A stretch of DNA of 22,676 bases from an archaeon (GTDB lineage Archaea; SpSt-1190; DYHY01): contig JBBIPP010000012.1 in the NCBI GenBank assembly GCA_037442745.1, forward strand, positions 36,702 to 59,377, written 5' to 3'. A model generated the notes under the pieces. That model saw nothing but the letters and a program-made list of their open reading frames with translations. It ran no database searches and was not told the origin of the DNA. The translations under genes and the position numbers were made by a program. This document shows positions 3,870 to 22,100 of this stretch, in pieces; position 1 is the stretch's first letter, and each line of letters begins with the position of its first letter.

Positions 3870-3963
3870 AAAAAAAGCCAGAAGTGACGGAAAGCCCAAA
3901 ATGCCAACATATTTTAAGCGAAATCAGGACGGCACCTAGTCAAAAACTCGCAATAATACAAGT

Positions 3964-3983
3964 GCCAGCGTGACAGAACGGCC
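3964..3983 (+). repeat. Exact 20-bp copy of the tRNA-Cys 5' end (att-like duplication)
   Basis: GCCAGCGTGACAGAACGGCC is identical to 4090-4109. Confidence 0.9.
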
Positions 3984-4089
3984 TCGCTTTGAACCCGTTT
4001 TTTCTTTTGAAAAAAAATCCGTTCACGGGAGTAAAAGAAAAGATAAAAAAGGCCGTGATGTCGGGATTGACAGTAAGAAGAAGGAAAAC

Positions 4090-4163
4090 GCCAGCGTGAC
4101 AGAACGGCCATGTACCCGACTGCAGATCGGAGAAACCCGGTTCAACTCCGGGCGCTGGCTCCA
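4090..4163 (+). tRNA. tRNA-Cys (GCA)
   Basis: Acceptor stem GCCAGCG/CGCTGGC, discriminator T (U73, a Cys identity element), encoded CCA, anticodon loop CT-GCA-GA, T arm CCCGG-TTCAACT-CCGGG; no intron. Confidence 0.95.
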
Positions 4164-4234
4164 CTATCATAATTAGGTTCTTTTGTCAGCGGGTTTAAAG
4201 GGAGACTTGTAGAAGTAAGGAGGTCCGATGACAA

Positions 4235-5515
4235 ATGTCGGACCAAGGAAAACCGGAAGAAAACAACACCCAAAAAGAAAAGAAACCGAAGAATGTGAAA
4301 GACGAAATATACCAGTATGACGGGAGGCTCGCAAACCTGCGTAAGGACATTGCGGAAAGCACCGTCATAAGCGAGCGAAACAGGCAAGTTCTGCACGAGT
4401 TTGACACATACCTTGGCTGTCAGGATATGATCAAGTCAAGGGTCATAAAACTGCTGTATGTTGTAAAAATCCTTGGAGGGTGGCTTGGGAATGATTTTGA
4501 GGCTGCCGAGCGGAAAGACATTGAAGTGCTGGTAAGCAAGGTTGAGCAACACCAGAAGTTCTCTCCGTGGACAAAGCAAGACTACAAGTTGATTTTGCGG
4601 AAATTCTATCAGTTGCTGCACGGGCTTGACTGGAAATCAAAGACCTTTCCACCCGAAGTAGCGTGGATAAGAATTGGCATAAAGTTGAGCAAGCGGAAAC
4701 TGCCCAGCAGCCTTCTGACGGAAGAAGAGGTGGCGAAGATGATTGACTTCGCTAACGGTCCGTTCCAGAGGGCGTTCATTGCCGTCCTCTACGAGACAGG
4801 AGCAAGGATTGGAGAAATCCTCTCAATGAACATCAAGGATGTTACCCAATCAGATTTCGGGGCTTTCCTTGACCTATTCGGGAAGACGGGCTCACGGAGG
4901 GTGCCTATTGTGGTCTCGGCTCCCTATCTCCTTGAGTGGATAAACAACCACCCGAAAAAGGCTGACCCAGAGGCTGCCTTGTGGTATTCCAAAAGCCGCT
5001 ACAATCGCTACAGATATGCGACAGCGGCGAAAATGCTTGAAACGGTAGGAAGGAGAGCGGGAATTGAGAAGCCTCTCAACCCCCACCATTTCAGACATTC
5101 AAGGGCGACGAGGCTCGCAAACAAACTCACCGAGCAGCAGTTGAAGTTCTACTTCGGGTGGGTGGGCTCGTCAAAAATGGCAGAGAGATACGTCCACCTG
5201 TGCTCAAAGGACATTGAAGCGTGCTATCTTGACGTCTATGGATTGAAGCCACCCGAAGACAAACCGAGCGAACAGTTGAAGACGAGGACTTGCGTAAAGT
5301 GCCACAGGGACAACAAGCCCACCGACATTTACTGCGGATTCTGCGGGTTCCCTCTCGACAAGGAGATGGCCGACAAGATTGTCCAAGTGCATGAGAAGCA
5401 GAAAGAGAAGAACCTGCTTCTTGACAAGATGCTGAAGAACCGGGACTTCAAGGAGATATTCGAAAAGAGCCTGAAAGCCATGTTCGAGGAGGAAGAAAAG
5501 AAGGAGACGAACTAA
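4235..5515 (+). CDS. Tyrosine recombinase/integrase with N-terminal SAM-like domain and C-terminal Zn ribbon
   Basis: Catalytic motifs LYETGARIGE (R), GKTG (K), HHFRHSRAT (HxxR), FGW...MAERYVHL (W, Y); CVKC...CGFC ribbon; AGGAGG upstream. Confidence 0.95.
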   Translation: MSDQGKPEENNTQKEKKPKNVKDEIYQYDGRLANLRKDIAESTVISERNRQVLHEFDTYLGCQDMIKSRVIKLLYVVKILGGWLGNDFEAAERKDIEVLVSKVEQHQKFSPWTKQDYKLILRKFYQLLHGLDWKSKTFPPEVAWIRIGIKLSKRKLPSSLLTEEEVAKMIDFANGPFQRAFIAVLYETGARIGEILSMNIKDVTQSDFGAFLDLFGKTGSRRVPIVVSAPYLLEWINNHPKKADPEAALWYSKSRYNRYRYATAAKMLETVGRRAGIEKPLNPHHFRHSRATRLANKLTEQQLKFYFGWVGSSKMAERYVHLCSKDIEACYLDVYGLKPPEDKPSEQLKTRTCVKCHRDNKPTDIYCGFCGFPLDKEMADKIVQVHEKQKEKNLLLDKMLKNRDFKEIFEKSLKAMFEEEEKKETN

Positions 5516-5518
5516 ATC

Positions 5519-5536
5519 GGGGACTGAAAGGTCCCC
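5519..5536 (+). terminator. GC hairpin immediately after the integrase stop
   Basis: GGGGAC-TGAAAG-GTCCCC; no clear U tract. Confidence 0.3.
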
Positions 5537-5540
5537 TCAA

Positions 5541-5720
5541 CATAAACAACTAAGACTTGTTAGTCTTGTAAGAGGTTTATGTTTCGTATGTCATATTGAA
5601 CTCGGGGCGCGCCCCCGCAAGCGGGGACCCCGCGGGACGGGACGAGAAGAAGCGGACCGGACCGATAAAACAGGAGAACTTCAGGAACCACGCGTTCCGT
5701 TCCGATGAGAATACCGGAAA
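5541..5720 (+). repeat. Left composite inverted repeat (putative recombination/binding site array)
   Basis: Blocks match the reverse complement of 15219-15373: 5569-5584 (15/16), 5617-5644 (25/28), 5652-5673 (19/22), 5698-5720 (20 matches with 2 single-base gaps). Confidence 0.85.
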
Positions 5721-5767
5721 GCTGCACCGCGACCCTAAAAAAGCCATTCAAACAATGATTCGACGTT

Positions 5768-6895
5768 ATGTGGGCTCTGACGCGCAAATTGGAAAGGTTT
5801 ATCAAAAGGGCGCGTGGGCAAAAGGCAATGGTCGCAAGAGAGTATGTGGAGGTTCTTCAAGGGCTTTGGCCAAAAAACAAAGCAAAGGGGTTGCTGGCGC
5901 AATCGAGACTCGAAGAAGGGATTGCTTCGAGGAGATTCGGGCGTGACGCCGGCGAGAAATTCATGCCGGGTTGCTGGCTGGTCTCCCCAAAAGAGCCCAA
6001 CTTTCATCAATTCAGATTCTGCTTCTTCGTTCATCCGACTCATCTGCGCCCCGGCGCCAACTTCGCCATCCGAGACCTCCTTGGAAACAAGTTCAGACCG
6101 TTCAATGCGCTCGCCGAGTTCATGAACAACGCGGCCATAAAGGTAGTGTATGCTGTGCCCTTCTGCGAGGAACTTCCTCTTCAACAACTGGCTCAGAAGA
6201 ACTATGGCGGGCTGGAATGGCGAATCTTCTTCTTTGAGAACGGGAACTTTGTCGAGACTACGCCCCGAGAACTATTTGACTCTTGGCCCGGAAACAGAGG
6301 GAGACCCGGACAAGGCAACCCGTGGGACGAAAGCACTATACGGGATTTCCAGACAGTTCCGGAAGAGCGCCTCGAATCTTTCGTTCTCAGCGAGGTTTTT
6401 TTCAGTGGGTTCTTGAAAGCCACACACAGAAAGCCAACCTCCGACCCCTATGATGTCGACTTCTTCTTGGTCAGCCTTTCACAAAAGCACCTATTCCCAA
6501 TCTAGGTAAAGGAGAAAAGCCCCTTTGGAGACGAAGATGAGCGATTTTTCGGGATAGATGCAGGAAGGATAATGATGCTATTGCGGGTATGCCTTCCTAA
6601 CGATGCGAATGCGGTTTATCTTATAAGAGAACTCAATGACAACGGGGATTTCGTTGACTGGAAATACATAACCCTCGGAGATTTGATAATGTCTGCCGGG
6701 TGGAACCTTCAAGCGGGTGGCCCTGGTATGGGAGGACAGGCCACACAAACTGTCAAGATTCCTTACGGAGAATTTCAGACTCTCGACGAGCGGGCCCTTT
6801 CGGAAGAGAATCTCAAAAGCATAGGAAACCTGCCTAAGGAAACCAAGGCAATTGCCCAGAGACTACGAGAAGGATTGGACGCGAGGTTCGGTTGA
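5768..6895 (+). pseudogene. PD-(D/E)xK type II restriction endonuclease interrupted by one in-frame TAG
   Basis: ORFs 5768-6505 and 6572-6895 are in the same frame. Read-through gives PYDVDFFLV...LFPI*VKEK, with TAG (6503-6505) at the E/Q-x-K catalytic position. Directly upstream of a C5 MTase. Confidence 0.75.
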
Positions 6896-6896
6896 T

Positions 6897-7892
6897 TTGA
6901 CAAATGAACCGAGATTCATCGACCTATTTGCGGGAATAGGCGGGATACGAATAGCGTTCGAACGTGCCGGGGGGCGGTGTGTCTTCTCGTCAGAATGGAA
7001 CAAAATGGCCCAGAAGACCTATTTCGAGAACTTTGGCGAAGTTCCTGCGGGGGACATCCACGAAATAAAGTCTTCGGAACTTCCTGAGTTCGACATCCTG
7101 TGCGGAGGGTTTCCGTGTCAACCTTTCTCCATAGCAGGAGTCTCGAAGAAGAAGAGCCTAAACAAGCCGCACGGCTTCGAGGACCAAGCACAAGGAACCT
7201 TATTTTTCGAGATAATCCGATTGTTGAAAGAACGAAAGCCCGCCGCCTTCTTTTTGGAGAATGTCAAGAACCTCGAACGGCACGATAAGGGAAAAACCTT
7301 CAAGGTTATTCGAGGCGCCCTTGAAGAACTCTGTTATTCATTCTACTACAAGGTAGTAGACGGCGCCCTTCTCGTCCCACAGCACCGGGAACGGGTATAC
7401 ATGGTCGGTTTCCGAGACAGGACCCTCGATTTCGTGTTTCCGGACATTCAAGACACCCATCCGAAATTCAAGGACATTCTTGAACATTCGATTCCTGAGA
7501 AATATACTTTGACCGACCATCTCTGGGAATATCTGCAAAACTACGCGAAGAAACACAAAGAAAAAGGCAATGGTTTCGGGTTCGGCCTTGCGAATTTAGA
7601 GGGAGTCACGAGGACCTTGTCGGCGAGATATTACAAAGACGGTAGCGAAATACTCATCCCCCAAATCGGGAAGAATCCTCGACGACTGACGCCTCGTGAA
7701 TGCGCTAGGTTGATGGGCTTCCCCGAGACTTTCAAGATAAAAGTATCCGATACCCAAGCATACAAGCAATTCGGCAACAGCGTCGTTGTGCCTGTTGTTG
7801 AAAAGATAGCAAAACAGGTTGTTTGGACCTTGAAGGAGAAACCAAAACGAAAAACGCCCTACTCAACTCAAAAGAGCCTTTCGAATTTGTGA
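6897..7892 (+). CDS. dcm: DNA (cytosine-5)-methyltransferase, Dcm/M.EcoRII/M.SsoII-like (CCWGG or CCNGG probable)
   Basis: Motifs [49 protein letters not shown]; [11 protein letters not shown]...[15 protein letters not shown] typical of the Dcm family. Start taken as TTG at 6897, just after the REase stop (ORF track begins at 6852). Confidence 0.93.
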
Positions 7893-8271
7893 GATATATT
7901 TTTGTGGCGTCTTTCTCAAAGAATGCTCCCTTATTCTGATGACCTTCCATCCTGAACGCCTAAGGAGGGATGTCTGCTTGCGGTCCCGCCTAACGTTTGA
8001 ATCTACCTTATTTTTCCAAAAATCTCGCCTCGTTTTCGGTAAAAGGAAGCATTTCAGACATTTGTGCCAGAAGCAACCGTCTACAAATACCGCCACCTTT
8101 TTTCGCGGGAAAACAATGTCCGGGCGCCATGTGATTCTTTTAGGGTGAGTTGAGAATTTTAGGCCGTTTTCCCTCAGAACTCACTCTTTGGAAGCGCCGT
8201 TCGAGTTCCGTCTAAGAGCGTATGTTGGACATTATCTCGCTGCGCTTCTTCTTGGATAATATGTCGACCAT
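7863..8271 (-). pseudogene. vsr: Very short patch repair endonuclease Vsr, with a nonsense codon and a frameshift
   Basis: ATG at 8271 gives MVDILSKKKRSEIMSNIRS* (TAG 8212-8214). After a frameshift near 8180 the sequence reads RPDIVFPRKKVAVFVDGCFWHKC...FWKNKVDSNVRRD...GWKVIRIREH. Confidence 0.9.
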
Positions 8272-8339
8272 GACCTTTATTCTAAATCGCTGGTTAAATT
8301 CCTTTTTCTAAGATTACCTCCACGCGCTTCAGGGTTTGA

Positions 8340-9701
8340 TTAAACGAGCGTTCTTTGGCTCTGCTCTTTGATTATTCTCGGGATGAAATAGTTCAAAACA
8401 TCCCCGTTCGAGCCTCTGAGTTTCGGCTGGTATTTCACCTCATACGTCGATGCGCCCGGTTTCCTTGCGAGTTTTATGCGGACGAACATTTCCATGGCGT
8501 CGGAAACCCAGCGGTTCTGCGGTATTTGCGGAAGGCGCTCTCCGTTCTGAGCGGGGGCGAAGTTGGCCAAGGAGGCCGTGACGGCGCCGAGTTCGACCTC
8601 CACTTCTATTGTCTTCCGTCCTCCCACTTTCCTGACTTTTGGATTTTCCTCTACTTTTATTCTCTTTTCTGTAAGTCGTATTGTCTTGCCAAGATAATTC
8701 TTGTAAATAATCCCGAGGAGTTCGACGCCAATCACTGAGAAGTCATAGGCGCTAAGGGGATGGTAAAGTTCACGTATAATCTCGGCAACCGCCTGAGTCA
8801 TAATTGGCGGTTTCGCAAGGATGGTCCTTGAAAATCTCGCCGTTAAAGTCATTGTTCAGCTGCTTGAAGAGAGCGTTCAACTGCGTTCTTATGTCCCTGT
8901 GCTTGGCTTCTTCCCAAGCGTCAACTATCTCTCTGAGCGTCTTCGCCTCTATTATCTTGCGGTCTTCCAATATTCTGATGAAAACAAGGCTGTCAAGAAG
9001 TTTTTGGACAACATCATTAAGGGCGCGAACGCTCAAATCTGGATTGTTCTTGTAGACATCTTTTGCGAGCTTCTCGCGCTAGGTAGTCATCTGCTCTAAG
9101 AACGCCGAGTCAACGGGAACCCGTAGGCGCCGAGAAGCAGGGTCCTTTGAGCTAAGGGAATCTAACCCGCCGTGGTATACAGTTTCCCGCGAGAACATCA
9201 ACAATTTTTCAAAATCGCTCGATGCGAACCTATCAGAGCTCAGCTCAAACAGAAGGCCGACATTCGGTTGGTTGACGTTCGGTTTGAGCGATGAATCAAA
9301 AACTCTGAACTTTTTAAAATCTGTGAGAACCACAACATTTACTTTGCGTGTGTTCAAGCCGTATCTTTTCGCTTGAAATATGTCATCTGGCTTTTCCACT
9401 CCTTTCGAGGGCGCCTTTGCTTCGACAAAGAACCTGTCCTCGTCATTTACCCTAAATGTATAATCGGGGCGCCCCTTTGTGTCTCCCTTTTCCACAAGAA
9501 CCTCTCTTTGTAGGGGGACAACCTTCCTTTGTTTACGAGGTCCCAGCCGAGTATCTTGAATAGTTCATCCAAAAAATCGGTTCTAAGTTGGCTTTCGAGA
9601 TAACCGTTTGACTCATATTCGGATTGGTGAGCACTATACCTATCAACTAACTCTTGAATCGCTTTCTTGATAGCGTCTGTCTGCGGACTTGTGCCACCCA
9701 C
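8340..9701 (-). pseudogene. Fragmented type IIG (Eco57I/TaqI-like fused R-M) enzyme; MTase core deleted
   Basis: Fragments ESQLRTDFLDELFKILGWD / RPDY...FFVEAKAP...LTDF / QKLLDSLVFIRILEDR...FNGEIF / YDFSVIGVELLGIIY...RKVGG. Two frameshifts plus TAG at 9079-9081. The expected YYTP, DPACGSG and NPPY motifs are absent. Confidence 0.85.
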
Positions 9702-9859
9702 AGGGGTTCGAAGTTCTGCGTTTTTCTATAGCTTTTGAGGAGGATTCAAGCAGAACTTCCTTGACTGACTGCGGAGCACCCGATATTTGATTCTTGACGG
9801 AGAGAACACATCTGGGTGACTTGAATCTAATTAACTAACGTAGTTGTGCGGCAATATTC

Positions 9860-10612
9860 GTGCAAAGCAATATATGTGAAGAATTTATGAATCAAACTAA
9901 TGCCGTGCGATGTTCCAACTCATCTGAAAAACGAGATATACAAATTGAAAGAACCTTATTTGTCAAGACTGTTTTACTATTCTCTGTTCGACATGGCAAC
10001 ATACGAAGAAGATTTTGTGCCTTCCTTTCCTTGGAAAACTCTGAAAAAATCTCTCAGGAAGTCGATAAAATTCTCAAGAAGAATCTCGGAGATTTTTCGA
10101 AACAATATTTGAAGTTAAGTCACGACGATAGAGAACAACAAAGGAAATTGTGGGTGTTTAGCGGAAAAGTCACACACGCCATACTTGAACGCATTCTAAA
10201 AGAAAAAGGTGTTTATGCAAAAAGCAACGCACACTCAGACAGTGAATTAGATGTAATTCTTCTCGAAAAAGGTGTGGAAATAGGTCATATAGAGGTCAAA
10301 CGACTTCTATCGACCAATAACCTCCATAACGGGCTGAGTGAGCACATAGACAAAGTCAAAAGGTGCAAGGGAAGTAAATTCTATTTTCTATGCATCTTTC
10401 CCTTGCTGCCTGCAGACTCTGCCGATAGAGTTAATGATTTGACAATAGGTTATCGTAATATCATAAATGAAGAACACCAACGAATGAAACGCGAAGGTAT
10501 AACATTCCTTTTAGGAATATCTCCTGAAAAGGACTCAGTTAAGCAAATAGGTGAAGCAATTGATTATCTTTGCACCCATATAGCAAAATACCGGAAATTC
10601 AATGGAAAATAA
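9860..10612 (+). CDS. Hypothetical protein, possible PD-(D/E)xK nuclease (true start uncertain, possibly frameshifted)
   Basis: SELDVILL...HIEVKRL fits D...ExK; AT-rich. The alternative N-terminus MATYEEDF... from ATG 9993 joins via the A6 run at 10044-10049. Confidence 0.5.
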   Translation: MQSNICEEFMNQTNAVRCSNSSEKRDIQIERTLFVKTVLLFSVRHGNIRRRFCAFLSLENSEKISQEVDKILKKNLGDFSKQYLKLSHDDREQQRKLWVFSGKVTHAILERILKEKGVYAKSNAHSDSELDVILLEKGVEIGHIEVKRLLSTNNLHNGLSEHIDKVKRCKGSKFYFLCIFPLLPADSADRVNDLTIGYRNIINEEHQRMKREGITFLLGISPEKDSVKQIGEAIDYLCTHIAKYRKFNGK

Positions 10613-10657
10613 TATATTTGAGCGGTATATAATACATTCAGAGGTGTCTGAATTACA

Positions 10658-11167
10658 ATGAATTTGTTTGTTTCAAAAAGTCTTTCAGACAAGGACCGCG
10701 GCTTACTTGAGGTAATAAATAGTTTATCTGAAAGTTCGGTCTATAGTGGCGGAAGAAAAAAGCTAATGAAAGTCGTTTTCCTACTTGAACACCTCAGAGA
10801 CGACCTCGAAACCTTAGTTCCAGAAGAACAATTTAGGAAAAACAGTTTCACCATATTCAACTTTGGTGTTTTCAGCACAGATGTAATGGATTCGTTATCT
10901 AAATTAATAGAATTGGGACTTGTCGAGGAGAAAAAGAAAGACTTTACATATGTTATGAAGATAACTGACAAAGGCCTAAAAAACACCGGAATGTTACAAT
11001 GTAAGGACAAAGAACGTCTTGAAAAAATAGTCAATAAATTCGGAAAAAGGACAGGCAAACAGCTCGAAAACGAAACCTTAGGGATGCTTCATTTGACAAA
11101 AGAATCGAAGCAACAAAGTATGGGTGTTCCTGTGAGTTCAATTATTGTGGGACTCGGCAAGGCTTAA
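10658..11167 (+). CDS. YwgA/DUF4065 (Panacea/SocA-like) winged-helix protein, putative antitoxin
   Basis: GRKKLMKVVFLL...FNFGVFSTDV...LIELGLV...YVMKITDKG resembles the GRxKLQKxxY...YGPxS...GLI...YxLTxxG pattern. Confidence 0.6.
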   Translation: MNLFVSKSLSDKDRGLLEVINSLSESSVYSGGRKKLMKVVFLLEHLRDDLETLVPEEQFRKNSFTIFNFGVFSTDVMDSLSKLIELGLVEEKKKDFTYVMKITDKGLKNTGMLQCKDKERLEKIVNKFGKRTGKQLENETLGMLHLTKESKQQSMGVPVSSIIVGLGKA

Positions 11168-11209
11168 ACGAAGAATCGGCTATAATTAATAGACGGTTCG
11201 GGGCGTTTT

Positions 11210-11647
11210 TTAATTACGTCTCTTTGAAGAAACCGCTATCACTTGACTCGGCACCCTGAACGGCGCCACCGAGACAGACCTTATTAAGAAGGAACCCTTC
11301 CGTTTCAACATTTCAGTCGTAGTCTTGGGGTAGAACATTGCATTATCGTAAATCATTACTTGCTCCTTCACGTGCCTATCTTTCAGGTATCCGACCATAT
11401 CTTCCTGTGACTCGAAAACACCTGTCAGGTCATCAGGGACAAGGCCGTTTCTTGCCTCTTCATGAGTCGCGTTGCAGGTGATATACCAATATGCCCTACT
11501 TTTGTCGTTCTCTTGAAGCAGGTTACACAGGTCTTTCCGGCTCAACAAATCTCCGCCCACAATCTGAACGGGACCTTTCTTCGAATCCAGAACTTTGACA
11601 ACTTTTTCCCACTCGTCACGACTTACAACAACTTTCCCGCTTGCCAT
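11210..11647 (-). CDS. Hypothetical protein
   Basis: Open frame of natural composition (ORF track to 11665; MASGK start at 11647 preferred); no family recognised. Confidence 0.55.
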   Translation of the reverse strand: MASGKVVVSRDEWEKVVKVLDSKKGPVQIVGGDLLSRKDLCNLLQENDKSRAYWYITCNATHEEARNGLVPDDLTGVFESQEDMVGYLKDRHVKEQVMIYDNAMFYPKTTTEMLKRKGSFLIRSVSVAPFRVPSQVIAVSSKRRN

Positions 11648-11889
11648 AATGATAGAATAGTTCACTCTTCGTTTTAGGATTTACGAGACTATTTTGTAGT
11701 GAGGTGACCACCAGTCTCAGCTAACTGAAACTGGTCAACTCAACAAAATAATATTTTGGCATAAACTCCCGGGGTTGGCTGTCTATGCCACAAACACTAC
11801 GAAAGGACGGATTTAATTATTTTTCGTTAATATCGGCAATTTCTACAACCAAAGCAAACAATTAAATTCTTGACGCGGTCGTCTTCTTT

Positions 11890-12180
11890 ATGTCGAAAAA
11901 GCCTTCGCCTGAGGAGGAAGAGTCCTACTTGGCGTGGGCGGTTAGAAAGTTGTGGTTTAGAGGATGTTGGCTGGGAAACAAACATCTTGCTGTCGATAAT
12001 CTTACGCAGGGAATGGCTCATTCACGTTATCCAAAAAGTGTAATTGTCGATATTTGTAGAAAACGAGGTTTAGTTTTGTTTAAACCAGCAAAATACGGAG
12101 AACAATGCTGGCTGAACACAGAAAGAAAGCAGGAAATAAAGGAGCTGATATTGAAGTATTACCCAACTTCAAATATTTGA
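11890..12180 (+). CDS. Small basic winged-helix-like protein (putative toxin of an archaeal TA-like pair)
   Basis: 96 aa; RKLW..GCW..KH...NL..G...GLVLFKP..YG....LN..R..EI resembles a small family I recall next to wHTH genes in DPANN archaea. Confidence 0.55.
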   Translation: MSKKPSPEEEESYLAWAVRKLWFRGCWLGNKHLAVDNLTQGMAHSRYPKSVIVDICRKRGLVLFKPAKYGEQCWLNTERKQEIKELILKYYPTSNI

Positions 12181-12203
12181 ATTTGAACTTCAAATTAGTT
12201 AGG

Positions 12204-12211
12204 TTTATATA
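12204..12211 (+). promoter_or_regulatory. Archaeal TATA box TTTATATA
   Basis: About 23-30 nt upstream of ATG 12234; preceded by palindromes at 12168-12196. Confidence 0.6.
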
Positions 12212-12233
12212 TATAACGGTTCCTTTAATTTTT

Positions 12234-12710
12234 ATGGAAAACGGAAGCCTTTTGCTCGAAGAACTATCTGTCATTGGCAAAAGGAAAGAAATGAGTGTAT
12301 TGGATTACTTGATAGAAAACGACATCTTCGACCACTCAATTGCCAGCATTGCCGCGGACCTGAACGTCTCACCAAACACCGTAAAGAAGGTAGTTGTAGA
12401 ATTCGCTTCCAAGGGAATGGTAGTGGCGACACGGAAAGTAGGAAAAGCTCAACTTTACCAAGTGAACAAGGGGAACTTGTTTGTGAAACTGCTCATGGAC
12501 TTTGCGTTTGCGCTTGGTGAGTCATCCGCATTTGGGACAGAAAAGCCAGCGCTCAAACTCGATGTTCGTTCAGAGATTGAACTACTGTCCGACCATCCAA
12601 AGGTGATTTGGACCGACCCACAAGTAAGAATGCCGCTCCAAACTCCAACGTGCACAAGTTTCCCGTGTCAGAATCACCCAATTTACGAAGGATATGTATC
12701 ACCTGCTTAG
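12234..12710 (+). CDS. Winged helix-turn-helix protein with a ~60-aa C-terminal tail
   Basis: VLDYLIEN.IFDHSIASIAADLNVSPNTV...GMVVATRKVGKAQLYQVN; start ATG 12234 chosen from the TATA position. Confidence 0.75.
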   Translation: MENGSLLLEELSVIGKRKEMSVLDYLIENDIFDHSIASIAADLNVSPNTVKKVVVEFASKGMVVATRKVGKAQLYQVNKGNLFVKLLMDFAFALGESSAFGTEKPALKLDVRSEIELLSDHPKVIWTDPQVRMPLQTPTCTSFPCQNHPIYEGYVSPA

Positions 12711-12724
12711 TTAGGAGAAGAAAG

Positions 12725-13030
12725 ATGGCAAAGAAACAAGAATCGAAGCCGAGAGTCATGAGGGCACCTTTGTTTTTCAAACAATACGTAACTAACGTAA
12801 TAGGCGGCGTTACCGACCACGATTTCCGGTTGGAGGTCTTAAATGAAAAGTTCCAAGACGGAAAAAGCTGGGTATATGTTTCGGATGGGGTGTTGATTCT
12901 CTCCCCGATAGGCGCGAAGAGAATGTTTGTGAAACTCAAAGAGATGATTGATGCCTACGAAAAAGAAAAAGGTCCGATAGACATTGGCCCCGGGAAGAAA
13001 GAAAAGGGCTATCCACCGAACGTAGAGTAG
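12725..13030 (+). CDS. DUF3467-like protein
   Basis: YVTNV...TDHDFRLE...LILSPIGAKRM...L...IDAYEKEKGPI; AGGAGA upstream of ATG 12725. Confidence 0.7.
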   Translation: MAKKQESKPRVMRAPLFFKQYVTNVIGGVTDHDFRLEVLNEKFQDGKSWVYVSDGVLILSPIGAKRMFVKLKEMIDAYEKEKGPIDIGPGKKEKGYPPNVE

Positions 13031-13105
13031 ATACTTGCGAGATTGGTAGCGGTTAAGCGCCATTTAGCCGGAAATAGTTATTAAGCGCCCTTAGACTATA
13101 ATCCG

Positions 13106-14140
13106 ATGCCTTCAGCAATCTTCATAGATGGAAAAAAGTTCATTCAAAAGACATTCAAAGACGAAGAGCAGTTCGAACAAGTTATCAAGAGTAATTCTAA
13201 ACTCTTTTTCGGTCAAAGCACAATCTACATTGACTTGAAGAGCAAAATAGATGCACGAACACTCGGGGGAACAATCCCCGACGGCTTTCTCTTCGATTTC
13301 AAAGACAAGGAAAATCCAGAGTTTTACATAATAGAAGTAGAACTTGCTCGTCACGATTTCTTTGGGCACGTATTTCCGCAGATAACCAAGTTTTTCTCTT
13401 TCTTTAGGCGACCGGAAAGCCGAAACAAGTTGGCAGAAACTCTCTTTAGGGTCATACAGTCAGATTCAAAATTAAATCAAGAGTTCAAGAAGGCACTTGA
13501 AGGCAAAGAGCTCTACAAGGCGGTAAAAGATGCAATAGACGAAAGTCAGAACATTCTCTTGATTATTGATGAATATAAAAAAGAACTCGACGACATTTTC
13601 GGGACATACACAGATACTTGGGACAAACTCGTCACTTTGGAAATAATTAGACAATACGTTTCAGAGAGCAGGTCACTGTTCGTTGTTGAGCCAGACTTTG
13701 AGGACATAGGTATGATTGACCTCGAACTTCAAAAAGGTGAAGAGACGGCCTATACTGAACAATTCCATACCGAAGGCGTTATCCCCGAGGTTATTTCAGC
13801 GTATGAAACAATTAAGAAAGAACTCTTAGGATTCGACCAAGGAGTCAAAGTTAACCCTCAGAAATACTACATTTCTCTGAGGAAAACGAGGAACTTTGCA
13901 TTCATTAAAATAAGAAAGAAAAAACTGCGTGTCGTCATAATGCTACCCTTGGACACGGGAAAGGAGGTAATCAAAGCCCACGAACTGATTCCTCTACCCC
14001 AAGCAGTCCAGAATTGGTATAACGGTCCTTGTTTTAGAGTAGATATTGCGGATTCTAAAGAATTAGGTGAGATAGTGACTGCTTTGAAGGAAGCGCACAA
14101 ACGAAGCACTCAATCGAACGAAGCGCAGAACCTACCATAA
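13106..14140 (+). CDS. NucS-like PD-(D/E)xK nuclease fused to a C-terminal DUF5655-like domain
   Basis: E..FE...IPDGFLFD...FYIIEVEL at the N-terminus; YTEQFH...YETIKKELL...VKVNPQKYYISLRKTRNFAFI at the C-terminus. Confidence 0.7.
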   Translation: MPSAIFIDGKKFIQKTFKDEEQFEQVIKSNSKLFFGQSTIYIDLKSKIDARTLGGTIPDGFLFDFKDKENPEFYIIEVELARHDFFGHVFPQITKFFSFFRRPESRNKLAETLFRVIQSDSKLNQEFKKALEGKELYKAVKDAIDESQNILLIIDEYKKELDDIFGTYTDTWDKLVTLEIIRQYVSESRSLFVVEPDFEDIGMIDLELQKGEETAYTEQFHTEGVIPEVISAYETIKKELLGFDQGVKVNPQKYYISLRKTRNFAFIKIRKKKLRVVIMLPLDTGKEVIKAHELIPLPQAVQNWYNGPCFRVDIADSKELGEIVTALKEAHKRSTQSNEAQNLP

Positions 14141-14247
14141 CTTCCGAGTGTGACTTTATTCTATTTACCGGAAAGGGCCTGTGTTTGTGGTTGATTTTGC
14201 CGTATTATCGTGCAAAATTTAAATTCCGTGACGATTTCTCGTAACGT

Positions 14248-14634
14248 ATGAGATTAATTGTAAACAGCCGGGGGCTTGTAGATTTTGAAGCCCCAATTAC
14301 GATGAATGAAGAACAGAGGAAAAAACTCATTGCCTTCTTCAAAGCCAGATTCCCAGAAACAGAAGTAATAGACGTTGCGGAAGTGAGGCGCTATGCCGGG
14401 GAACGCGAACGCACTTTGAAAAGCTGGTCTCCGAAAGAGTTTGCGTTAATACTTTCATCGAAGACAAACGACGAAATAGCCCAAATAACGAACCGAACTG
14501 AAATGAGCGTCCGGATGAAGCGCGGAGATTTCTTTCCGGCGTTTTTGAACTGGATGCGCAAAAAGGGGCTTTCTTACGTTCCCGACAAGAATTACGAAGA
14601 TTTGATAGCCACATATCTCAAGGAGGTAGCGTAA
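14248..14634 (+). CDS. Hypothetical protein with a Myb/SANT-like HTH; paralogue of the next gene
   Basis: WSPKE...EIAQITNRTEMSVRMKR Myb-like pattern. Confidence 0.65.
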   Translation: MRLIVNSRGLVDFEAPITMNEEQRKKLIAFFKARFPETEVIDVAEVRRYAGERERTLKSWSPKEFALILSSKTNDEIAQITNRTEMSVRMKRGDFFPAFLNWMRKKGLSYVPDKNYEDLIATYLKEVA

Positions 14635-14635
14635 G

Positions 14636-15217
14636 ATGGTCACAATAATGATAGGGGACCGCCAAAACGTTGATTTTGATGCGCCTGTTGAGCTCACACC
14701 CCAGCAAAAAGAAGAGTTTGTCTCTCTTTTGAAGAGTATTTTTGATGTTGTTGAGGAGGTAACTTCTGACGAAGTTCGACTTGACCGACTCGGAGACAAG
14801 AACTTTTCCAAAGGATTGTCCGAATCAGAGCTTGAGTCTCTGCTATCTGATAGCACAACTGAAGAACTGACCCAGAAACTCGGAAGGTCGTGGATGAGTG
14901 TTGATATCAAACGAGGGTGGTTTGTTCAATATTTTCTGGAATGGCTCGGTAAAAAGAAGCTCACAATGACCAAACAGAACCTTCGCTCACTTGTTTCACA
15001 GTTTTTGAAGGAACGCGAGGAAGCACAAAAGAGCGCGCGAGAAGTCCGGCGCCAGCAAAGACTAAACAAACGAGAGAAAATAGAAGATTTGGAAGCAAAG
15101 GTCAAACAGCTTAGAAAACTGATTTCTGCGGGATTCCATAAGAAGAACAAACAGTATGAGAACGCTGAGACTGACCTTTCTGACGCGCTCAAAGAACTGA
15201 AAATGGAGGAAGAGTAG
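14636..15217 (+). CDS. Hypothetical protein, paralogue of 14248-14634 plus a C-terminal coiled coil
   Basis: Shares VDF(E/D)AP, EVR, MSVxxKRGxF...FLxW..KK; AGGAGG at 14621-14626; charged helical tail. Confidence 0.7.
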   Translation: MVTIMIGDRQNVDFDAPVELTPQQKEEFVSLLKSIFDVVEEVTSDEVRLDRLGDKNFSKGLSESELESLLSDSTTEELTQKLGRSWMSVDIKRGWFVQYFLEWLGKKKLTMTKQNLRSLVSQFLKEREEAQKSAREVRRQQRLNKREKIEDLEAKVKQLRKLISAGFHKKNKQYENAETDLSDALKELKMEEE

Positions 15218-15218
15218 T

Positions 15219-15373
15219 TTTCCGCTATTTCTCGGAACGAAATGCAATTTTCCCGACTTTCGTCCCCTTTCCACGTACCGTCCCGCTGGGTCCCAGCTTG
15301 CTTGGTTCGGCTGGTTTTTCGGTCCGATCCGCGAGCCCGGTTTAAGAAAACTTAAACCTCTTAGTAGTTTAAG
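15219..15373 (-). repeat. Right composite inverted repeat
   Basis: Reverse-complement counterpart of 5541-5720; includes CTTAAAC-N9-GTTTAAG (15351-15373) and GCTGGG-T-CCCAGC (15285-15297). Confidence 0.85.
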
Positions 15374-15554
15374 AAAAGTTTAAATCTTCCAGATGCATAG
15401 GAACCCCAAGGAAATCAAGATAGGGCGCAAATGTATGCGCTTTTGATTTAATTGACGCTTGGGGCGCTTGCTTCACACCAATAGTTCGTCTCAGTACCTT
15501 AATGCGGGGCAATCTTATAACCAAACTGCCCATCCAACCAAAGCAAGATGGCAA

Positions 15555-15882
15555 GTGCCACTAAAAAAATTTCGAAAGAACCCAGGATTCAAACAAAATA
15601 TTCTCATTGCGTTGTGAATTCTGGCCCTATTGTCTCTGCTAGGATATGCTGAATATAGGAGCGGCGTCCTCCTGCCGGTTGTAGTGAAAGATAAACAAAA
15701 GCAATCAGTTCTTGCAAACTAGCTGGTAATAATGACCACTAGTCAAAATTGAACAAGTTGTCGGAGGATTGGGCGGAATAGTGACTGTCTCCGTCCTAGA
15801 AACAGGCACATATCAGGTGAAATTTCCAGTATCTAACCTAAAGGACCTTGACACGATTGCGCAGGAGATCTGGAAAAAATGA
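15555..15882 (+). pseudogene. Remnant of a membrane-anchored protein gene
   Basis: GTG 15555 reads PLKKFRKNPGFKQNILIAL*ILALLSLLGY...VLAN*LVIM; after a frameshift KIEQVVGGLGGIVTVSVLETGTYQVKFP...WKK*. Confidence 0.35.
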
Positions 15883-15925
15883 GTTTCAGTTTCCCCCGCA
15901 TATGTTGTTGCGCGTGCCCCCCGGC

Positions 15926-16111
15926 TCACCGCAATAGCCCTGTCCGGAGAAAGCTTTTCATTCCCCATTTGGCAACAATGAAGAACTCGTTCTCAAGGCT
16001 CACTTTTTTTCAAGTCAGAGATCTTCCATTACAGACAAGCCTGCCGTCCTTTATCCAGTAGCTTGTGCATATTTTCTCGGCAACCAAGAAATAATTTGAC
16101 ATTTCAGACAT
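15926..16111 (-). pseudogene. Possible C-terminal remnant of an ABC transporter ATPase
   Basis: MSNYFLVAEKICTSYWIKDGRLVCNG...SLENEFF resembles the post-H-loop end of ABC-2 ATPases; internal TGA at 16010-16012. Confidence 0.3.
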
Positions 16112-16138
16112 TCTCAGGGCTCACTCCTTTCCCTAAGC

Positions 16139-19144: not shown

Positions 19145-22100
19145 TTAATTTCCTCCGAACCACGACAGGAGAACTGCGAAAAAGTTCCCAGATGGCATGC
19201 TGTTTGCAGGTGGATTCGCCTTTAGATAGCCTGACTGGCCAACACTTCTGCAGTCGGCATATTCATTGTTCACCTTGTCAATCGCGTTGTTCAGGGTCGT
19301 TATTGTGATCCCTCTTGGAAGGTAGACAGTCCTATCCGCTCCAAGAGCGCTTTCTGAGAGATCCAAGAGATAGCGGACAGTCTTTCCGGCGAATGGACCG
19401 TACTGGATATAGAGGTCGCCTATTTTTGCGCCTCCAGTTTCCTTTCCGATTCCGGCGTCCGACGCAAGAACGTTCAGCTTCAGTGCAGTGACTTGCCCTC
19501 CGAAAACTCCTGAATCTGTATTTGTCGGGTTAGCGTAGGACTTGTCAAGGGGCCTTGCGCGCCCTCCGGCCGGAAGATAGTTAGCGACTGCTGATGCGCT
19601 GGAAAGGGTTATTGAATATCTTCCCTTTCCTACCCTGAGCGTCCCTCCGGTTATCGTCTGCCAATTGTTCGAAAGAAGCGCTCCTATGTTATGCCCTGCC
19701 GGATTCGCCCCCCATCCCCCCTGTGTTTGTGTGCAGTAGAGAGTTGTTGAAGGAGGGCTCGTGGTTGTAGTTGTGTTCTGCGGAGCCGTTGTGGTTGTTC
19801 TGGGAACGGTTGTAGTTGTTGTCGGAACTGTTATCATAGTTACTCCGCAGTTGACCTTGACTGTCTTGTTGCACTGGGGATATCCCGAAACTCTGGCAGA
19901 AAGCGTGTAAACTCCCTCGACTGCGGGGATGTTTATTCTTGCTGGTGTTGTGGGATAGGTAAAGTTCAGGACATTTGATGCGTTCTTCACTCCAAGAAGT
20001 CCTGACGAAGCTGTCGGAGTCCAAGAGAGAGTTCCTGTTATTGTGTAAGGGCTTGCTGGATACGGGCAGTAGAACATTGAGGCGGACGCCTTTGCGCAGA
20101 ACAACTGGGACACTCCCGTCCTGTTCGTGCTGTTAGTGCAGAGCCTTGCCGCCCTGTAAGCATTCTTACAAGTCGAGCAATACGCGTCGCAGAAAGTGGT
20201 CTTCTTGCATCCATTTACCCCTTCAATTTCGCACTCTACAGTCCCAGCAGGGCAGGGTGGCGGAGTGCATGCTGAAATGATGTCGTCGCAGTCGTCCCTT
20301 GGGACAAGTATTGCGTTCGCAGTAAAGTTGCCGTTCCTCTGTATGGGGGGGTTCCTCAGGACAATTTCCCTCTGCTCGTCAATGCTCTTACAGGTGCAGA
20401 CTCTTCCGTTCGGAGTCTCAGATAGCGTTGTGCACCATGCGGTTTCGGGCCAGAAACAAGTTGTTCCGCCGCATTCTCTGCTTGCAGTGCAGGCGGAGCC
20501 TGTCGGAAGCAGGTTTGCGGTTGGAGCAAGTCCCGTTGTTGCAGCTGCAGTGGCCCCAAGAGTCCCAGAAGCCGACGCAGCGGGAGCGTTGACTTGCTTA
20601 GCTTGCTTTTGAATTATTGAAGCTTGTTTGTCCTCGTCAAAATTTGGTTCCTTTGCTGGAGGCTTGAATGATCCTCCGTCAAGCTTCACCATCATTATCC
20701 TGACATAGAGGCTCCTAGCTGATTCGGGCGTCGTGAAATAGGGCCGGAGATTGAACTCCTTTGAGCATTCTAGGCCGTTCTCGATGAAGCCGTCGTCGTT
20801 GCAGAGCGTCTGCCATCCGGAGGGCGTCTTCACCTGAATTGTCATCTTTCCCCAGAGATAGGAACCGGTGGAATTCTTCTTCCAGAAGCTTCCGTTTCCG
20901 GAGAATGAGCTGTAGAGGTTTGAAAATGAGAGCTCTGAAAGATATCGTTCATATTGCGAGGTCGGGACCCTTCCTAGCCAGTCTCTGTATGAGACATATA
21001 CAACCCTTGTGGCGAGCCTTCCGTCAGGATTCCTCGCATCAAGGTTGAATGACGCGCTCTCGGCGGAACAGGCTTTCAGCAAATCATTTATCAGGCGCCC
21101 GTTGTCATCGGAATTTTTCTTCGTATAGTTGTTGGAGTTTTCGTCGTTCTTCTCCTCATAGAGATATGCCGCGCCCGGGCTGAGCGCAAAAGGAGAGCCG
21201 GGGAAACTCACGTTTGAAGGACAGACGAATGCCGAGCACTTGGCGTTCAGGTTTATTGAGCAAGCAGAGGGAAGCGCTTCACAAACAACCTGCTGTTGGG
21301 ATTGGCACCCGGGGATTTCTGCCGAGCCATCCTTTACAATCCCCTTGACGGAGAATGTTTTCGAGGAATATTGGGCCGGGGTTGTGAATTGCACCTTTAC
21401 CGGCGAGACTGCGCTCGAGTTCAACCTTCTTGTTTCGTTGCCGTCAAGAACAGTTATTGTCCCAATGGCCCTGTCATATCCGGAAACTGAGAAGGTCTTG
21501 TTTCCTGTGATTATCCAGCTGTTTCCGGAGGTTATGCACTTGGCAAGAACCTTTGACTCGCAGGTTTTCTGAAGATATTTGCAGGTGACCGGCTTTGTCT
21601 GTGTGCATCCGGGAATTTCGCCAGTAGAGTTTTTGACAGTTGCAACCAGCCTGTATTGGTTGTAAGCGCTCGCGGTCTGGTTTATCTGCGTTACTAGGAA
21701 CGGGTGTGTAGAGTTTATTTCATGGATGTTCATCCAATTTCCGTCAATGTTCTTCTCAATTTCAAGGAACGCTATTGCTCCGGAATGCCCTGTCGAATTC
21801 CACGTGGCGTTTCCGGAAACAGCGAAAATGTTGTTAACGGCGTCAGAAGAGCAAGAGGCGGACACTTCAACGGAGCAGGTCTTTGGAGGGATTGTTGTTG
21901 TTGTGGGAACAGTCGTCCCGGGGACGGTTGTTGTGGTGCTTGGCTTCACTGTCGTCGTTGTCTTGCAACTAGGGCAATCGTTGCCAGTGCATTTGCAGAG
22001 CGTTTCGCAGTTATCTCCGCTTCCGATTGTGGTGACCCCGTTGCTGCACGTGCATCTCATGTAGCCTGGGGGAGTTGTTGCTTGGCATTGGCCATAGCAT

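Follow-up and report, generated by a model that had tools for sequence, protein, structure and literature searches.

[quoted passage not shown] The island is an ordinary integrated element of decaying restriction-modification cargo, its one oddity being an additional, inverted copy of its border. The genome that holds it is that of a small uncultivated archaeon and is compact (1,136,343 bases, ~1.14 Mb). Coordinates are collected in Table 1.

Table 1. Features of the island and its borders (window coordinates)
Feature	Position	Strand	Remarks
Displaced duplicate of tRNA-Cys nt 1-20	3964..3983	+	20/20; 126 bp upstream of the gene
tRNA-Cys (GCA), likely integration target	4090..4163	+	ARAGORN; Rfam tRNA, 47.9 bits
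Probable attL core, 3' end of tRNA-Cys	4150..4164	+	GGGCGCTGGCTCCAC; direct repeat with 15462-15476; family pattern
tRNA-int arm (P' side)	4165..4244	+	contains GGTTTAAA (4192-4199) and a palindrome across the int ATG
Tyrosine integrase (int), 426 aa	4235..5515	+	C-terminal Zn ribbon; Pfam PF00589 at 1.4e-22; Zn_Ribbon_1
11-mer GAGACGAACTA	5504..5514	+	covers the final int codons and TA of the stop; 2 copies in genome
Left palindromic site	5541..5581	+	CATAAAC-AACTAAGA-CTTGTTAGTCTTGTAAGA-G-GTTTATG, 27-nt spacer; letters read directly
S_L, inverted partial arm-module copy	5541..5745	+	after int stop; sequence comparison
Cargo	5768..15217	.	mixed gene content, several unknowns
C5 DNA methylase	6852-7892		cargo gene
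Type IIG restriction-methylase fragments	8340-9701	-	three ORF fragments, PADLOC PDLC03604
HTH protein	12105-12710		cargo gene
DUF5655 protein	13106-14140		cargo gene
S_R, full arm module	15215..15461	-	adjoins attR (P-arm side); sequence comparison
Right palindromic site	15351..15373	-	CTTAAAC-TACTAAGAG-GTTTAAG, 9-nt spacer; ~90-110 bp inside attR
Probable attR core, displaced tRNA-Cys 3'-end-like repeat	15462..15476	+	GGGCGCTTGCTTCAC; 13/15, direct
Inverted copy of the 11-mer	15482..15492	-	GAGACGAACTA; just outside attR

The tRNA-Cys gene is the only one for this amino acid among the 41 tRNAs detected in the genome, and int, which follows it, is the sole intact PF00589 member; a second match, on contig C10, is a fragment with a stop. 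The int reading frame is intact and in one piece. Pfam detected only the catalytic domain and the C-terminal Zn ribbon in its product, and no arm-binding domain. A search of the four sister genomes G001-G004 found no int. The cargo looks foreign, with its restriction-modification genes and fragments and a GC shift from ~0.49 to ~0.41 at ~9.5 kb, just past the type IIG fragments; these three ORFs fit successive parts of one PDLC03604 model, which indicates a single decayed gene. The last two cargo ORFs, 14248-14634 (128 aa) and 14636-15217 (193 aa), resemble paralogues, with N-terminal and central motifs in common by eye; neither has a family match. Directly outside attR, positions 15493-16138 form ~640 nt without a convincing ORF, to the right of which come a membrane protein and then a RuBisCO-like gene.

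The borders of the island are drawn from the end of the tRNA gene. When the 15-mer at the tRNA end was searched with at most 2 mismatches, the window yielded one other match, at attR, where 0.05 would be expected, and the whole genome yielded three places in all: the tRNA, attR and position 21402 of another contig, C14. The pattern GGGC.CT..CT.CAC is invariant among attL, attR, the end of a related sequence on C14 (see below) and the tRNA-Cys of sister genome G001. The longest exact run shared by attR and attL is 7 nt, and the window has no exact tRNA-derived repeat of at least 11 nt, unlike the relatives surveyed next. For archaea a review gives att identities that can be as little as 8-14 bp (PMC8371274), and another paper describes a regenerated target and a displaced fragment that marks island ends (PMC4383910).

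We surveyed 24 other loci of the same integrase family. Homologues of int occur in 58 of the 401 genomes searched, at 31-45% identity; a large protein database held 1204 relatives at E <= 1e-20, none above ~43% identity. A same-strand tRNA gene lies just upstream of int at 13 of the 24 loci. Five of these 13 carry an exact direct repeat, 11-13 nt long, of the extreme tRNA 3' end at 2.7-16 kb downstream, and one has a second near-complete tRNA copy downstream (6/13 with a repeat or copy). The window matches this tRNA-adjacent rule, which places attL at the tRNA-Cys end and attR at 15462-15476 and gives an island of ~11.3 kb. Two points count against this placement: attR, at 13/15, is weaker than the exact repeats of the relatives, and neither a repeat nor a second copy was found at the other 7 of the 13 tRNA-adjacent loci. 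An att site at the 3' end of int was considered as a family trait and dropped, as distant copies of that end occur at just 2 of the 24 loci; both are direct, consistent with tandem elements. In L024 (G006:C17), positions 264-432 and 10277-10445 form a 169-nt direct repeat (93%) that corresponds to the final ~55 codons of an integrase homologue linked to tRNA-Cys; the copy at 10277-10445, 9.8 kb away, has a stop codon and was probably left behind by a second element in tandem. A literature search turned up nothing published on the integrase family, nor on arms like these in archaea.

Upstream of the tRNA gene, the stretch 3918-3982, which takes in the displaced 5' copy, matches the promoter and 5' end of the true G001 tRNA gene at 83%. 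The G001 promoter and 5' end resemble this displaced copy and not the region upstream of the window's functional tRNA-Cys (3918-4109; L033 4975-5206), and G001 has two partial tRNA-Cys 5' copies of its own. In run X2 a short alternative contig connects 3973 with 3918 through 26 other letters. G001 keeps the left-flank genes and tRNA-Cys, and its contig stops 228 nt past the tRNA; its similarity to either flank was not significant (p=0.8 and 0.5).

Both palindromic sites are embedded in a longer non-coding module of ~170-280 nt, which we call S and which is present in three copies: S_L, S_R and one on C14, flanked by a radical-SAM gene on one side and by a truncated type I methylase with an hsdS fragment on the other. 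No fourth copy was found in the genome. The core regions of the left and right sites align (p=0.001, 3000 shuffles). Between S_L and S_R we found inverted similarity in block I1 (5617-5644 with 15274-15301; 28 nt, 89%), in block I2 (5652-5679 with 15305-15332; 28 nt, 82%), between 5676-5705 and 15232-15261 (30 nt, 70%) and in a further block of 28 nt (79%); the order of I1 and I2 is swapped between the two copies. Besides these blocks S_L contains its palindrome and a dyad, GTTCCGA..CGGAAAG (5699-5721), and S_R contains four GTTTAAR/YTTAAAC motifs (15340, 15351, 15367 and 15378). The closest pair of copies is S_R and C14 (79% over 140 nt, 76% over 74 nt), which have in common an outer block of ~110 nt (86%) that is missing from S_L. 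S_L is also without the tRNA-like core. The similarity of the two palindromic sites reflects common descent of the longer module.

The outer edge of S_R is sharp, and attR lies at it. Homology between S_R and C14 begins abruptly at GTGTGRAG, which on the opposite strand resembles the tRNA-Cys 3' end, and the C14 copy terminates in GGGCACTTTCTCCAC (12/15) at the same position as S_R does. Another tRNA-end fragment, with 12 exact nt and on the same strand, lies 7.8 kb off on C14. These tRNA-Cys-3'-end-like fragments, C14:21402-21416 and 29181-29195 (-), flank radical-SAM/SPASM genes on a contig with no tRNA-Cys. No orthologue of the gene or genes between them was found in the four sister genomes. 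The layout of C14 looks like stacked islands at a tRNA-Cys-type site, as far as sequence comparison can tell; no mobility protein common to the C14 island and that of the window was found. Apart from the end of int, the 11-mer GAGACGAACTA occurs just once in the genome, inverted and 3 nt beyond the S_R edge (p=0.0085), and at the equivalent place C14 has AGAAGGA..AAACTAAAT (p=0.2 by score).

Searches for S beyond these copies gave nothing more. Of the 17 genomes of the class, the one analysed here (G000) was alone in having a pattern conserved in all three copies, with 0 for the reversed control; degenerate patterns had 0 matches in two metagenome and two viral scans, and BLAST among 40 relatives found no homologue. 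A match at 12065-12086 was not significant, as a shuffled 172-kb contig gave 2 at the same threshold.

The sequence-only reading had described the two sites accurately. Their letters and coordinates are correct (left 5541-5581; right 15373-15351, minus strand), as are the inner palindrome AAGACT-TGTT-AGTCTT of the left site (5552-5567) and the extra arm pair GGTTTAAG-AAAA-CTTAAACC that overlaps the right one (15339-15358); deletion of 5556-5573 does give the left site a 7-9-7 geometry with 8/9 spacer identity to the right site and arms that differ at one complementary position. The motif CWTAAAC-N(5-30)-GTTTAWG occurs genome-wide only at these two sites. As bare palindromes they are unremarkable: perfect 7-N9-7 palindromes number 3 in the window, and perfect pairs of 7-nt arms with spacers of 0-40 number 144. 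Folded as single-stranded DNA, the left site forms a strong hairpin (-10 kcal/mol, z -4.5). The right site folds weakly, with a minimum-energy structure that uses other pairings (z -2.0).

Short motifs recur across the arms. GGTTTAA is found at 4192, 15339 and 15352, and GGTCCGA at 4222, 4238 and 15321. Within ~700 nt of arms, GGTCCGA occurs 3 times against 0.027 expected and GTTTAAG 3 times against 0.018, these motifs having been picked post hoc; GGTTTAA and GGTCCGA, likewise picked post hoc, are more than 100-fold over their genome rate. S_L carries the GTTTATG pair and CGGACCG twice, and the C14 copy has no GGTCCGA and just two of the AT-rich motifs. A perfect 7-N9-7 palindrome, GGTCCGA-TGACAAATG-TCGGACC, spans the int ATG at 4222-4244 and is a candidate operator for int autoregulation. 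Its GGTCCGA recurs in the attR-side arm (15321). Similar letters serve as promoter boxes in this genome: at -48 to -15, TTTAAA occurs in 72 and TTAAAC in 23 of 685 genes, against 19 and 2 further upstream. GTTTAAG is upstream of 0 of the 685 genes, and is thus not a usual promoter element here. For the arm motifs, the binding-site and the promoter/operator readings are inseparable on sequence, and both may hold.

We propose that the integrase inserted the island at the tRNA-Cys 3' end, with the tRNA end as attL and its degenerate direct copy as attR. The right palindromic site would lie within a ~250-nt P arm, module S, that adjoins attR and whose short repeats recur in the attL-side arm. These repeats are most likely sites for the predicted second DNA-binding part of the integrase or for an accessory or regulatory protein; they appear partly merged with a TATA-like promoter (GGAAGA-TTTAAAC) and would not be points of strand exchange. 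The left site would belong to an inverted, internally shortened copy of the arm placed right after the int stop. We conjecture that S_L, without its core, is the relic junction of a related element that probably entered the opposite way at an att-like sequence ending int; such an entry would make the cargo composite, with which the GC shift and the pseudogene fragments are consistent. A search for a second integrase remnant beside the right copy gave only noise. At present S_L may provide the first cargo operon with a promoter or leader.

An opposing interpretation is that of the sequence-only reading, in which the palindromes are inverted crossover cores of the loxP/dif kind, the 9.8-kb segment between them is or was invertible, and an 18-bp insertion in the left site is a recombination scar that locks it. 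The perfect 7-nt arms, the complementary arm change, the 8/9 spacer and the genomic uniqueness of the motif agree with this, as do the position of a site beside the only intact integrase and the ending of left/right homology near the outer edge of the palindrome. We nevertheless judge it very unlikely. The spacers, of 9 and 27 nt, exceed the 6-8-bp overlap that inverted arms enclose in the known cores covered in the review's account of them (PMC8371274), and partners in a crossover should have identical overlaps, where here the left and right spacers reach 8/9 only upon deletion of 18 nt. Lack of conservation of arms or spacer at homologous loci had been named among what would refute this reading, and the one such locus available, C14, shows it: the centre of the palindrome is the least conserved part relative to S_R (10/24, against 22/22 and 7/7 in the flanks) and its counterpart forms no stable DNA hairpin (z 0.0). 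The 18 nt need not be an insertion: a gapless alignment of left and right sites gives 22/28, and the supposed insert matches the loop of the C14 copy at 12/18 and sequence neighbouring S_R equally well (12/18). Inverted copies of the int-downstream region were found at 0 of the 24 family loci, and a palindrome after the int stop codon in 0 of 5 homologues examined. Contigs, to which the read-level evidence is confined, cover both sites in two runs, which may be the source samples, and show only the window's arrangement, with no joints at either site; this is weak evidence, as contigs hide minor forms, and those of run X3 give no cover of the sites. Nothing supports a locked invertible cassette, and the island is explained by the tRNA-type att pair, a better-supported core that fits the family habit. 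The sites lie in att-adjacent modules, with the likely joining points of the island elsewhere, and are not free-standing cores. A link to site-specific recombination does stand in the broad sense, in that the sites adjoin the only intact tyrosine integrase and lie inside an arm adjoining att; as crossover cores they do not stand. Our verdict, from sequence, is that the palindromes are probably accessory or regulatory arm repeats.

The inverted similarity could also reflect a ~10-kb transposon-like element at 5504-15492, with long imperfect inverted repeats, inserted in the last int codons. Its tips would be the 11-bp GAGACGAACTA and TAGTTCGTCTC, perfect, inverted and confined to these two genomic places, with subterminal homology on both sides and a possible flanking 2-bp AG duplication; such a duplication is, however, at chance level. 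We found no transposase family in the cargo, the left end is without 110 nt, I1 and I2 are swapped, and the tRNA-like attR sits between the right tip and the module, likewise in C14, all of which make this reading highly improbable. Unlikely, to a lesser degree, is the view that S is purely a transcription module (BRE/TATA, an operator palindrome, and a GC-rich leader or small RNA) spread by segmental duplication. TTTAAA and TTAAAC are promoter-box forms of this genome, the same box type precedes int and the ORF at 12105, GGAAGATTTAAAC is kept 22/22 between S_R and C14, and S_L lies upstream of a likely real gene, 5768-6505. Yet two of the three copies of S face the 3' end of a convergent gene; Rfam gave no match to S at gathering score, and only noise at E up to 1; RNA folds of the whole segments are weak (z -1.9, -2.4 and +0.6); and the tRNA-like terminus and the sharp edge are left unexplained.

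The tRNA-Cys island reading gives likely att sites and borders for an integrative island of a poorly known small archaeon, and a rule for an uncharacterised integrase family present in 58 of the 401 genomes searched: a tRNA gene immediately precedes int, and the far border is marked by a short copy of the tRNA 3' end. In the arm repeats we have concrete candidates for what would be an archaeal integrase's first accessory (arm-type) sites. The case also shows those who scan genomes that a neat palindrome next to an integrase is not necessarily its crossover site.

Among known systems, loxP and FRT have arms of 11-13 nt and a spacer of 6-8 nt. The window sites resemble loxP, FRT and dif in their inverted arms and asymmetric spacer, and differ in having 7-nt arms and a spacer of 9 or 27 nt and in not being conserved in the homologous C14 copy; a simple core of this type is rejected on both geometry and conservation. 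Integron attC sites were also considered and rejected: the integrase scores far below the integron integrase (IntI) cut-off (43 against 265), and the palindrome arms presumably do not fit the attC end consensus. Membership in XerA/dif was rejected on score as well (81.4 against a XerA_Arch cut-off of 220), and int falls below the curated XerC/D cut-offs too. The dif site itself is given as 11-6-11 in the review's description of it (PMC8371274).

Lambda attP, as outlined in the same review, spans ~240 bp and contains several Int, Xis and IHF sites (PMC8371274). Like such a complex attP, the window has a core-adjacent arm (~250 nt here) with short motifs, picked post hoc, that are distinct from the core and repeated in the other arm, where they overlap the int start; unlike lambda, its integrase has no N-terminal arm-binding domain detected by Pfam, and a cluster of motifs is 1.4 kb away from the core, past int. 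One may go further and see here an archaeal lambda-like complex attachment site, core plus arm repeats read by one Zn-ribbon integrase, which we consider quite unlikely. The catalytic part would read the tRNA-end core and the predicted second part GTTTAAR and GGTCCGA; with inverted arms flanking int and the core, the protein could govern int expression, or else invert or loop the module in FLP/FRT style; and the Zn-ribbon tyrosine integrase family concerned would be widespread in small archaea. By word counts, 'zinc', 'DPANN' and 'arm-type' are absent from the review of archaeal tyrosine recombinases (PMC8371274).

The proposed inverted relic has a parallel in TKV2 and TKV3 of Thermococcus kodakarensis, related archaeal elements that are integrated in opposite orientation according to the review's passage on them (PMC8371274); there, as in the window, paralogous element sequences are inverted in one chromosome region, whereas no second integrase remains in the window. 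An att-like sequence overlapping the end of int recalls the SSV-type 'suicidal' integrases as that review sketches them (PMC8371274). The window's int is one intact 426-aa ORF, not split, with att at the tRNA upstream of it, and SSV-type membership was rejected. The closest fit to the preferred reading is with tRNA-integrated islands (Islander-type, and archaeal elements with short att repeats). The window differs from these in that its far repeat is degenerate (13/15), its tRNA also has a displaced 5' copy, and an inverted partial arm copy lies beside int; it shares with them the intact tRNA next to a tyrosine integrase, foreign cargo and, at the far end of that cargo, a direct repeat formed by a displaced piece of the tRNA 3' end.
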